Shown: positions 6,702 through 62,720, numbered from the stretch's first letter. The stretch is 64,000 nucleotides of DNA from a virus (IMGVR_UViG_3300045015_000053); one strand, 5' to 3'. Numbers and translations: made by a program. The notes: generated by a model from the sequence alone, not told the origin.

Positions 6702-7079
6702 GGGGATGAAAAGGTTTCGATACGGTACGGAGGTTGTGAGTTGCACGCCGTGGTTGAGCGAAGGGCCACGTTAAAAATCGTTCAAACTCCATCTGGCAAA
6801 ACCAGTGGTCTGCGTCTGGTGGGCGACCGCCCGGCGCTCCGTCTCGCGGCTTGACCGCGACGGGTCCGCGAGGGACTTCAGATAACTCGCGGGTCCGCAA
6901 CACATCTGGATCGGTCATCAGGGTTGCTCCCTGACTGATGGCCGGAACTACCAGGGAAGCTTGCTCGTGACCTTGATGTCGGTAAGAGGTTACGGGGACT
7001 CCAGGCCCGACTAAGCGTGTGAACGAAATTTACAGTTGAAGTAGCGTACACGCGGGTTCGACTCCCGCCATCTCCACTA
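6702..7079 (+). ncRNA. ssrA: tmRNA, tag (A)GKTSGLRLVGDRPALRLAA
   Basis: 5' GGGGATGAAAAGGTTTCGA; 3' T-arm GCGGGTTCGACTCCCGC and CATCTCC-A with G3:U wobble; tag frame 6795-6854 ends LAA-TGA. Confidence 0.93.
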
Positions 7080-57336: not shown

Positions 57337-57903
57337 TCAGTTCTTGATGAAGAGGGGTTTGTTGATTTTGAATACCGTACCGACCTTCTTGGCGAGCATT
57401 TCGACGTAGCGGCCGTCGTCGGCGATGTCGTTGCCGGGCCACGGGGTCGTCTTCACCACGTCGGCGGCGGCGATCCAGTTGCCCAGGTCGCACTCCGTGA
57501 TCTTCGGCTGACAGCGGCAGACGCTCCAGCCGAACTCGCGGTGGAGCATGTCGCACATGACCATCTTGCAGTCGTTGCTGTCGCGGAAGACCTTCAGCAT
57601 TTCTTCGAGGTAGCCGGGGACGTAGTAGTTGTCGTCGTTGGTCAAGCCGATCACGTCGCCGGTGCAGTGCTTGATCGCGAGATTGCGATACGGGTGGCCC
57701 CAGAATCCCAGAAGTGCGGGGGTTTCGAGCATGACGAGACGTGGGTCGGCGAACGACGCGACGAGTTGTTTGGCGTTGTCGTTCGGGCCGTCAGTCGTTA
57801 TGATCGCTTCCCAGTCCTCGTGCGTCTGACGCTTCAGACAGAGGATCATGGCGAGCAGTCGGTCAACGGGGTACTTCACACGCACGCAGATGGATGCTTT
57901 CAT
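57337..57903 (-). CDS. GT2 family glycosyltransferase
   Basis: QTHEDWEAII..DGPND, RNLAI...TGD.I..TNDDNYY.P. Confidence 0.82.
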   Translation of the reverse strand: MKASICVRVKYPVDRLLAMILCLKRQTHEDWEAIITTDGPNDNAKQLVASFADPRLVMLETPALLGFWGHPYRNLAIKHCTGDVIGLTNDDNYYVPGYLEEMLKVFRDSNDCKMVMCDMLHREFGWSVCRCQPKITECDLGNWIAAADVVKTTPWPGNDIADDGRYVEMLAKKVGTVFKINKPLFIKN

Positions 57904-57954
57904 CTGAAAGCATTGTAGTCCGAAACTTTTTCTAGATTTTTTTCAAGTCTGGTG

Positions 57955-57983
57955 TTGGAAATCGAAAACAAGGTCGCTACTAT
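57955..57983 (+). promoter_or_regulatory. sigma70-type promoter of the tRNA array
   Basis: TTGGAA-17 nt-TACTAT, 5 nt before the first tRNA. Confidence 0.6.
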
Positions 57984-57988
57984 AAACA

Positions 57989-58059
57989 TGCGGAGTGGAG
58001 GAGAGGTTCCTTGTGAGGCTCATAACCTCAAGACGCTGGTTCGAGTCCAGCCTCCGTAA
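57989..58059 (+). tRNA. tRNA-Met(CAT), initiator-like, copy 1
   Basis: TGAGG-CTCATAA-CCTCA; GCTGG-TTCGAGT-CCAGC; U1-A72. Confidence 0.85.
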
Positions 58060-58065
58060 CTAGAC

Positions 58066-58136
58066 TGCGGGTTGGAGGAGAGGTTCCTTGTGAGGCTCAT
58101 AACCTCAAGACACTGGTTCGAGTCCAGTACCCGCGA
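58066..58136 (+). tRNA. tRNA-Met(CAT), initiator-like, copy 2
   Basis: D and anticodon arms identical to copy 1; U1:G72. Confidence 0.85.
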
Positions 58137-58138
58137 CT

Positions 58139-58505
58139 CAGGCAGACGGAAAGAATTTTGGAAATCTGCCAAAAGGCGTGAACCACTTACGGGTGAAAGC
58201 GTCTATACTACACGGGCCGACGATGTCCATCCAAAAGGGATGGCTCACTCGACCCAAACCCAATGAAGCCGTAGGGGTGGATTTGGGGTCCAAATAATGC
58301 GAGTTCAATCTCGCGGAAGTCACTGCCATGTTCGTCGTAAACCACAAGCCAGGGAAACAGATGCAAGCGCAGGCAGTGCGCGTTTGCACTGGCATTACCG
58401 TCAACGGACCCGCCGCCGCATGGTGCGAACGTCCGCAAGGTAATGATAAGACCAAGACTCCCTGACTTCTCATCAGAGATCAGTCGGGGATTAACTCCCC
58501 CGGCG
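58139..58505 (+). ncRNA. about 365-nt structured non-coding RNA (family unassigned)
   Basis: Helices GGCAGA/TCTGCC, CCATCC/GGATGG, GCGAG-TTCAAT-CTCGC, ACTGCC/GGCAGT, CATTACC/GGTAATG, TCCCTGACT/AGTCGGGGA; terminator follows. Confidence 0.62.
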
Positions 58506-58514
58506 ATAGCACAC

Positions 58515-58560
58515 AAGAACCCTCGCCGGGGTCAAAGCTCTGGCGAGGGTTCTTTCGTTT
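58515..58560 (+). terminator. intrinsic terminator
   Basis: AAGAACCCTCGCC...GGCGAGGGTTCTT then TCGTTT. Confidence 0.8.
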
Positions 58561-58601
58561 GGGAGACTGAGATGACGTATAAACGCAGGGGCTTTTAATC
58601 T

Positions 58602-58675
58602 GGCCCCGAAAGCTTTAGCTAGATGAGCAACAGCCTTTTAAGCTGTGGAAGAGGGTGCGATTCCCTACGGGGCTA
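58602..58675 (+). tRNA. tRNA-Lys(TTT), non-canonical (A8, T loop TGCGATT)
   Basis: ACAGC-CTTTTAA-GCTGT; GGCCCCG/CGGGGCT. Confidence 0.8.
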
Positions 58676-58681
58676 CTGAAT

Positions 58682-58754
58682 GGCCCGCTTGCTACAACGG
58701 AGAAGCGCCGAGCTTTTAACTCGGTCACGGTCGGTTCGATTCCGACGCGGGCTA
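58682..58754 (+). tRNA. tRNA-Lys(TTT)
   Basis: CCGAG-CTTTTAA-CTCGG; TTCGATT T loop. Confidence 0.9.
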
Positions 58755-61026: not shown

Positions 61027-61281
61027 ATGAGCAAGACAACGTATTACCGGCAGTGCCGACTTCAACGCGGCAATTGCCACCAAGTGAGTTGGATTCCCGA
61101 ACCGTACTGCGTCAAGGACAAAGTCCTGAAGCTCAAGAACAGTGACGGTGTTTGGGAGAACGGATGGGTGGTGAAGGGAGCCGGAACCAACCGGATCACC
61201 GACGTGCCGCACGCCGAAGGTTTGATTCGCGCACACCGGAAAGCTACTGGTGATTCGCTGCCGAAAGGTCCGAACAATTGA
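61027..61281 (+). CDS. hypothetical protein inside the tRNA array
   Basis: AAGG RBS; YRQC.L...VSWIP. Confidence 0.65.
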   Translation: MSKTTYYRQCRLQRGNCHQVSWIPEPYCVKDKVLKLKNSDGVWENGWVVKGAGTNRITDVPHAEGLIRAHRKATGDSLPKGPNN

Positions 61282-61417: not shown

Positions 61418-61544
61418 CTCCGATTTTGAAGGCTCTGGTTCCCCTTGTGGGTGGTAAAAAGATCGCGCATAATCATCACGTTGCTGCGATTGGGCTGTAG
61501 AAATCGAAACCCCCAATGTCTGCGTAGCAGACAGGGAGTAAGTG

Positions 61545-62720
<1,176 letters not shown>

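Follow-up and report, generated by a model that had tools for sequence, protein, structure and literature searches.

What kind of molecule lies behind two tRNA-Met genes in the genome of a huge phage from lake water? The stretch in question occupies positions 58139-58505 of the virus sequence IMGVR_UViG_3300045015_000053, counted within a window of 64,000 nt (the whole stretch of DNA analyzed here), and the parts of the element given below by window position lie on its plus strand. The initial annotation had described it as an ornate RNA that would be released by tRNA 3' processing and belongs to no recognizable class. Our analysis retains one part of this description and replaces another. Its 5' half folds into a conserved RNA structure backed by covariation. 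The 3' half, in which no plausible open reading frame (ORF) had been seen, holds a small ORF and, behind it, a series of segments that can pair in alternation, the last two forming an intrinsic terminator. We propose that the unit is a ribosome-mediated (leader-peptide) attenuator of the his/trp type that gates a downstream array of tRNA genes and the phage's own gene for elongation factor Tu (EF-Tu), a reading in which we place roughly even confidence. Since the stop codon of the ORF falls in the first segment of the switch chain, a cis-acting leader mRNA fits the data better than a free trans-acting RNA.

The evidence comes from comparison with relatives. These were reached through the 188-aa glycosyltransferase encoded next door, whose relatives show 58-81% identity and whose contigs were then inspected. 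The element is present on contigs L125 (86% nucleotide identity), L126 (81%), L128 (70%), L130 (69%; L131 is identical to it) and L129 (67%), with a partial copy on L127. A profile search with the small ORF brought four more called "proteins", on contigs L133, L134, L136 and L137. Homologues are thus known from 10 further phage lineages, at 67-86% nucleotide identity; with the present phage this gives 11 lineages, 10 of which reach the 3' end of the element. In every lineage the element lies 3' of one or two tRNA-Met(CAU) genes (the tRNA is degenerate in L127), and the same terminator closes it wherever the 3' end is reached. Profile hidden Markov models of both halves recover all these homologues and nothing else among 138 loci.

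The initial annotation found no plausible ORF, a statement that the comparison overturns. Positions 58328-58465 hold 45 codons plus UGA (MFVVNHKPGKQMQAQAVRVCTGITVNGPAAAWCERPQGNDKTKTP), the proposed leader peptide, and this frame is open from the same AUG to the same UGA in 11/11 lineages, with lengths of 45, 45, 45, 45, 45, 47, 46, 46, 45, 50 and 52 codons. Its start (ACUGCC-AUG, 58322-58330) and its end (ACUCCCUGA, 58457-58465) are almost invariant. Between these fixed anchors the length shifts by +3 (L133/L134), +3 (L137), +3 (L134), +3 (L136), -3 (L137), +15 (L128) and +21 (L127); all seven changes are multiples of 3, an outcome with a chance expectation of ~(1/3)^7, or ~5 x 10^-4. This indel pattern is our chief argument that the frame is read, the ratio of nonsynonymous to synonymous substitutions (dN/dS, 0.1-0.6), the third-position signal and the state of the +1 frame being weaker measures. 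A purine-rich tract, GGAAG (58315-58319), lies 8 nt 5' of the AUG; as GGAG precedes just 17% of this phage's long ORFs, a weak Shine-Dalgarno sequence is normal here. The word GUGUUC (window 58288-58327 and equivalent sites) is kept in most relatives, and its GUG provides an in-frame, stop-free start 30-42 nt 5' of the AUG in 5/10 lineages; a stop or frame shift intervenes in the other five, so we rejected it as a conserved start. Minus-strand ORFs of 111 and 102 aa, which have no Pfam, PHROG or database relatives, were dropped.

Beyond the ORF come segments rich by turns in G and in C, which can form mutually exclusive helices. Segment A (UCCCUG, 58459-58464; feature 58459-58465, conserved as ACU[C/U]CCUGA) overlaps the stop codon UGA (58463-58465), and the stop codon lies inside this segment in every lineage. 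Segment B (AGUCGGGGA, 58482-58490) can take A or C as its partner, and segment C (CUCCCCCGGCGA, 58494-58505), the 5' strand of the antiterminator, can take B or D. The stretch is followed, as originally noted, by an intrinsic terminator (58515-58560), an 18-bp hairpin at 58515-58554 with D (CCCUCGCCGGGG, 58520-58531) in its 5' arm and E as its 3' arm, and then a U tract (UUUCGUUU). In all 10 lineages that extend this far the four hairpins are present, and their energies are balanced, at -12 to -20 kcal/mol for A:B, -13 to -20 for B:C, -13 to -17 for C:D and -21 to -35 for D:E. The antiterminator C:D spans 8-9 bp (98.8% paired); at its one variable pair, five lineages have G-C, four have A-U and one has a mismatch. 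The D:E terminator is also 98.8% paired and has one covarying pair, CG in six lineages and UA in four, at the same D residue that varies in C:D. That one D residue covaries with both C and E is expected if D pairs with each of them in turn; a simple terminator would not require it.

Which of these helices forms depends, in silico, on the position of a ribosome. The transcript was folded under constraint as far as the end of D, the stage at which E has yet to be transcribed. Masking the stop codon with a 30-nt ribosome footprint then leaves B:C formed and C:D absent in 10/10 lineages, and a footprint on codons 8-10 gives A:B and C:D in 10/10. Codons 8-10 coincide with a segment, Z (CAGGGA, 58350-58355), which RNAalifold pairs with A to close a three-way junction around two hairpins inside the ORF, H7 (58362-58388) and H8 (58393-58445). 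Z:A is 95% paired and almost invariant, and we regard this junction as tentative because Z does not vary. H8 corresponds to the nested domain CAUUACC[CGGAC..GUCCG]GGUAAUG of the initial annotation and is found in all homologues; its outer stem holds well (94-100% paired, with a few two-sided changes), and its inner stem and H7 are less regular (67-93%), the inner CGGAC/GUCCG pairing standing at 67% in this alignment. Apart from tRNAs, a single Rfam model scores below E = 1 in this region, and it does so over the 3' part of the unit: a sub-threshold similarity to His_leader (RF00514) at 58470-58556 (24.9 bits, E = 0.096). Since the gathering score of this family is 49 bits, the element is not a member of it.

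We envision a single transcription unit in which a promoter would drive tRNA-Met (1-2 copies) and a leader of ~420 nt that ends in the intrinsic terminator. The ORF of 45-52 codons would pass through two hairpins and end at the UGA within segment A. The antiterminator state would combine A:B with C:D, and the terminator state B:C with D:E. A ribosome that has reached the stop codon would cover A, allowing B:C to form and leaving D free for E, with termination as the result. The stop context here is Pro-UGA or Ser-UGA, contexts at which termination is slow. A ribosome that lags or stalls over codons 4-15, which overlap segment Z, would instead permit A:B and C:D, and the polymerase would read on into the tRNA array. 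Poor translation would in this way yield more phage tRNAs and EF-Tu. The mechanism assumes that transcription and translation are coupled in the host.

What the leader might sense is a more speculative matter. Of the 12 residues at codons 4-15, 8-11 are K, M, E, G, Q, P or N, which are also the amino acids that the tRNAs encoded just downstream would carry; in this post hoc test the background in the phage proteome is 33%. In the divergent L127 the composition of these codons is kept and the sequence is not. The leader could act as a feedback gate on tRNA supply by sampling the Asn, Lys, Pro, Gly, Gln, Met and Glu codons that the downstream tRNAs would read, although we consider this extension of the attenuator doubtful. 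Under such a gate, a shortage of host tRNAs, for example through the anticodon nucleases of anti-phage defence, would stall the ribosome over Z, favour the antiterminator and switch on spare tRNAs and EF-Tu. Three papers present phage tRNA genes as a counter to host tRNA-cutting defences (PMC10264068, PMC11555353, PMC11464382). If true, the gate would bring the classical logic of attenuation to bear on tRNAs themselves and would give the phage a sensor of tRNA-targeting defence.

Several observations weigh against the attenuator. The excess of third-position changes in the ORF is weak (variable columns 26, 23 and 30 by codon position), and the +1 frame is likewise almost free of stops. The match between codons 4-15 and the tRNA array was found post hoc, and as conserved residues overlap RNA helices, constraints on the RNA could explain it. 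The leader has no tandem run of a single regulatory codon, and 45-52 codons is long for a leader peptide. Folding without a ribosome gives a mixed picture (six antiterminator, three terminator and one mixed). As C:D is far less stable than the terminator, antitermination would need to be under kinetic control. Z:A shows no covariation. A conserved YAUAAAC box that follows the terminator, described below, may be a separate promoter of the downstream tRNAs, in which case readthrough may matter little. Finally, the attenuator model gives the conserved 5' domain no part to play.

If the ORF is translated, its product could matter for its own sake. The locus would then be an ordinary small-protein gene with a functional product of 45-52 aa, a structured 5' untranslated region and a plain terminator, and the alternative pairings would arise from repeated G-rich and C-rich words. 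The conserved frame with dN/dS < 1 is what such a gene would show, the ORF is called as a gene by gene callers in several contigs, and ten residues of the product are invariant (M1, G9, A16, V17, R18, C20, W32, N39, D40 and T44). Every one of these positions, however, belongs to an RNA helix or to segment Z or A. The product has no match in Pfam or NCBIfam, only its own family turned up when 1.84 billion representative proteins were searched with a profile, and its protein-likeness in atlas recognition is low. AlphaFold2 predicts no fold and no secondary structure for it, with a predicted local distance difference test score (pLDDT) of 57 and a predicted template modelling score (pTM) of 0.12, and by these models the peptide does not resemble a folded protein. 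Moreover, the terminator stem and the upstream segment that mimics it both keep their sequence and covary with each other, which a plain terminator does not require, and the UGA lies within segment A without exception. We regard a small-protein gene as unlikely.

The 5' part of the element raises a different set of questions. The minimum free energy of the whole stretch is -162 kcal/mol, compared with -133±5.8 in 100 shuffles (z = -4.99; 0/100 as good). In an RNAalifold alignment of ten sequences, the 5' domain (58174-58287) contains three conserved stems, with 96.8% of cells paired and nine pairs changed on both sides, where 500 shuffles gave 3.8±1.2 and 0/500 reached nine; pairing falls to 27-44% when the partners are slid. 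The first stem, P-a (58174-58204, AGGCGU/GCGUCU), has an internal loop, GAAC, that never varies and is capped by a hairpin that does, and its helix (helix 1) is 95% paired with one-sided changes only. This is the hairpin with a purine-rich internal loop of the initial annotation, and it is conserved in all homologues. P-b (58214-58256) is a two-part helix around the conserved internal loop CGAUGU/CUCAC (helices 2 and 3, 94-97% paired, six two-sided changes), and P-c (58259-58287, CCCAA..UUGGG with inner GCC/GGC) comprises helices 4 and 5 (100% paired, three two-sided changes). In L127, P-b and P-c are lost, P-a is the sole part of the domain retained, and everything downstream is kept. A further hairpin, H1 (58141-58170), occurs in the clade of the window, L125 and L126, takes another form in L128 and L137, and is absent from L129, L130, L133, L134 and L136. 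A long-range pairing of the P-a loop GAAC with GUUC was discarded on finding GUUC altered without compensation in L136 and L137.

At ~150 nt, this domain appears to be a new conserved RNA structure outside known families. No Rfam 15 family matches the stretch at the gathering score besides the tRNAs in its vicinity, and at E <= 10 the interval 57900-58700 yields only tRNAs, the weak His_leader similarity and two chance-level matches; the initial annotation's placement of the RNA outside recognized classes holds to this extent. Four homologous loci gave no Rfam family match either, and the Rfam 15 covariance models of ROOL, GOLLD, OLE, raiA, RNase P, transfer-messenger RNA (tmRNA), T-box, YrlA and group I intron do not match. 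Readings by eye of the fold as RNase P-, tmRNA-, T-box- or group I intron-like were rejected for want of Rfam support and for a misfit in motif order. As for what the domain does, it could pace the polymerase, stabilize the leader after tRNA processing or serve as a second sensor.

In line with the initial annotation, the element could be a stable trans-acting structured RNA freed by tRNA 3' processing, comparable to the stable RNAs of the T4 cluster and to ROOL and GOLLD, with an ORF that is incidental or part of a dual function. The z score near -5, the covariation in the 5' domain, the position directly 3' of a tRNA in every lineage (counting the degenerate one of L127), the element's own promoter and terminator, and the lack of a match to known families all agree with this. 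The 3' third, on the other hand, is a set of mutually exclusive helices and not a single stable fold, and frame preservation in 7/7 length changes would be unexpected in a purely non-coding RNA. The large 5' domain is also dispensable in L127, where the ORF and the switch persist, and the T-loop-like hairpin that had been listed among the RNA's features is not conserved. We consider a free stable RNA quite unlikely.

That hairpin, GCGAG-UUCAAU-CUCGC (58299-58314), exists as described, but in this phage only, and its loop has 6 nt where a tRNA T loop has 7. It lies in a variable linker (58288-58321) between the 5' domain and the ORF; at its site the relatives carry GUGUUCAC or GUGUUCUA plus inserts, or else GUGUCCAC or GUGUACAC, in other contexts. 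The 16-mer of the hairpin, GCGAGTTCAATCTCGC, occurs in three copies in this genome. The two further copies stand at G000:C1:73824 and 73921 (window coordinates 64702 and 64799, past the window end), 97 nt apart in a tRNA-gene spacer. That the hairpin is confined to this phage and repeated there suggests a module that is mobile or was copied recently.

Beyond the linker, an invariant ACUGCC (58322-58327) abuts the AUG and is complementary to an equally invariant GGCAGU (58372-58377) in the loop of H7. The two words give 6/6 pairs in 10/10 sequences with zero variation, and a pseudoknot across the start region is possible; as no pair varies, the pairing is unproven. It is highly unlikely, in our judgement, that the element is a riboswitch-like or protein- or tRNA-binding leader, in which the three-stem 5' domain would sense tRNA, EF-Tu or a metabolite and set the switch directly or through initiation at ACUGCC-AUG: this idea, which is compatible with the attenuator, draws on the conserved internal loops (GAAC and CGAUGU/CUCAC), the covarying stems, the complementarity across the start codon and the complete expression platform downstream, but no Rfam riboswitch or T-box matches up to E = 10, no pairing between the 5' domain and segments A-D is conserved, L127 keeps the switch without P-b and P-c, and there is no candidate ligand.

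The attenuator proposed here borrows a known logic and places it in a new setting. In the his leader, A:B, C:D and E:F form an alternative to B:C and D:E, and a ribosome at the stop codon favours termination. The element resembles the his (RF00514) and trp leaders in having a short ORF 5' of an intrinsic terminator and alternately pairing segments between which the position of a ribosome would choose. It differs from them in several respects: there is no run of a single codon, the ORF has 45-52 codons and passes through two hairpins, a phage tRNA array and EF-Tu gene stand downstream in place of biosynthetic enzymes, and tRNA genes and a conserved structured domain of 150 nt precede it. Also comparable are the stalling sensors that gate stress genes, such as the PA5471.1 leader of armZ in Pseudomonas, bmrB-bmrCD in Bacillus and the ermK-type leaders. 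Like these, the ORF would report the general speed or stalling of translation and not one amino acid. The pyrBI leader of E. coli, with 44 codons, is similar in length to the ORF. The stalling sensors and pyrBI respond to antibiotics or to UTP, belong to bacterial chromosomes and have no sequence relation to the element, and we know of no leader of the PA5471.1, bmrB, ermK or pyrBI type that gates tRNA genes or occurs in a phage.

Two further comparisons concern the company that the element keeps. With the stable RNAs of the T4 tRNA cluster (species 1 and 2, rnaC/rnaD), ROOL and GOLLD it shares the presence of structured non-tRNA sequence in a phage tRNA cluster, probably co-transcribed with it, and it differs from them in its frame-conserved ORF, its terminator switch and the lack of an Rfam match; to our knowledge, no ORF with a terminator switch has been described in those RNAs. 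Bacteria have operons that combine tRNAs and translation factors, among them metY(tRNA-fMet)-rimP-nusA-infB, with internal terminators, and thrU-tyrU-glyT-thrT-tufB. As in the first, a tRNA-Met opens the unit and a terminator precedes further translation genes; as in the second, EF-Tu is embedded among tRNA genes. Control in these operons is mediated by the NusA protein or absent, unlike the arrangement proposed here, and we know of no leader peptide in the metY or thrU-tufB operons. Our literature search found no attenuator ahead of phage tRNA genes. The type of attenuator is a known one, and what would be new is its placement before a phage tRNA/EF-Tu array, together with the conserved RNA domain. 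Little is known of how phage tRNA genes are regulated; if our proposal is correct, the element would be, as far as the literature search shows, the first case of such a cluster controlled by the sensing of translation, through a simple and testable circuit. Other candidates for ornate RNAs beside tRNAs need to be checked for frame-conserved small ORFs.

A sigma-70-like promoter (57955-57983), read from the sequence, has its -35 element TTGGAA at 57955-57960, a 17-nt spacer and its -10 element TACTAT at 57978-57983. Its predicted transcription start lies a few nucleotides from the 5' end of the first tRNA-Met copy. The promoter falls under the threshold of a strict consensus scan; the layout TTGCAA-17-TACTAT/TAATAT (TAYTAT) precedes tRNA-Met in L128, L130, L134, L136 and L137. 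The two tRNA-Met(CAU) genes (57989-58060 and 58066-58137) were called by ARAGORN, the first with an Rfam tRNA score of 56.3 bits, and relatives carry one or two copies. The stretch begins, in line with the 3 nt first given, 1-3 nt past the second copy, whose end is placed at 58137 by ARAGORN and at 58136 by Infernal. Co-transcription with the tRNA-Met genes is plausible and its layout conserved, with a shared upstream promoter and, in lineages not cut by a contig end, a conserved terminator.

The description of the two tRNAs as initiators is supported in part. Both have A11:U24 and a 1:72 pair that is weak but paired (U1-A72 in copy 1, U1-G72 in copy 2). Read from the alignment, their anticodon stem has only two of the three G:C pairs (G30:C40 and G31:C39, with A:U at 29:41), and the C1xA72 mismatch is absent from both. 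The T loop of the tRNA-Met before the element is UGCAAUU or UGCAAGU, not UUCGAGU, in several relatives (L130:1779-1850(-), L134:197-268 and L136:2767-2838).

Downstream of the unit, tRNA-Lys, Met, Glu, Gly, Gln, Pro and Asn genes and the phage EF-Tu gene would be the targets of readthrough. In relatives whose contigs extend that far, the element is followed on the same strand by tRNA-Lys, Met, Glu, Glu, Gly and others and then by EF-Tu. Between the terminator and tRNA-Lys lies the conserved box mentioned above (GAGAUGACGUAUAAAC, 58569-58584). This YAUAAAC box is present in the nine lineages with a readable site and is repeated before the second tRNA-Lys of L137; L130, in which the terminator is succeeded by a 140-aa ORF, showed no such box. 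Its role may be that of a phage promoter resembling those of T4 late genes, or of a processing signal. After the box, a short leader CAGGGGC (58586-58592) is complementary to the 5' acceptor strand of tRNA-Lys (GCCCCG, 58603-58608), and this pair covaries in relatives (GGGAGCC/GGCUCC in L133 and L134).

The window comes from an IMG/VR virus record of 188 kb, for which CheckV estimates 37% completeness, and a 476-kb contig has the same gene neighbouring the leader unit. Besides the features described, the window contains a tmRNA (6702-7079), ~20 tRNA genes, HNH insertions and the EF-Tu gene (61542-62720). No RNA run is listed among the sequencing runs that contain the sequence, an outcome to which we attach no weight. 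Three lake sequencing runs contain identical pieces. A wastewater "RNA-Seq" run, probably of DNA, gave a 173-nt contig over 58241-58390 whose hairpin region is, by eye, seemingly of the L125/L126 type, and from which we conclude nothing on expression or habitat.

Searches by other routes returned no further members. BLAST and nhmmer with the stretch found no homologue in 37 viral loci around EF-Tu relatives or in five whole related megaphage records, a search of the "phages" collection matched the tRNA only, and no viral relatives were found for the upstream 553-aa glycosyltransferase. Among exact-pattern scans, the T-loop 16-mer had 28 viral matches, all coding or chance, GCCAGGGAAACAGATGCAAGC had zero among viral contigs, GGAAGTCACTGCCATGTT had 22 in metagenome contigs, all chance, and ACTGCCATG...AGGCAGT had a single chance match inside a portal gene. 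A tRNA-Met pattern scan of viral sequences gave 23 loci, with a homologue after the tRNA in 0/23. One tRNA-Met of the megaphage G002 was inspected and set aside, a plain terminator being all that follows it. A similar layout occurs in G003, a related 436-kb phage (L094:1473-1870). There the sequence behind a tRNA-Met(CAU), ~270 nt long and unlike the element, also folds strongly (z = -6.8). This sequence has a 28-codon ORF (MAVLIQRHGKQ...LMS, ending in GUCCUGA) and a terminator, after which come a 76-aa ORF and tRNA-Asn x2, Lys, Ile x2 and His; profile hidden Markov models detect no homology between this stretch and the element.

Two features of the neighbouring genes recur among the relatives. 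Immediately 5' of EF-Tu, the window has an 84-aa ORF on the plus strand (61027-61281), and called genes of 84 aa in L125 (2210-2464) and 89 aa in L136 (4565-4834) occupy the same place and have no family on record. HNH-type ORFs or remnants lie beside tRNA genes at differing sites, at L127:1095-1400(-), L130:928-1350(-) and L099:1237-1618. The HNH-like motif was read by eye in the L127 and L099 ORFs, and the L130 ORF, which carries no annotation, is counted here as no more than a guess. Two of these three insertions lie directly 3' of the element's terminator.

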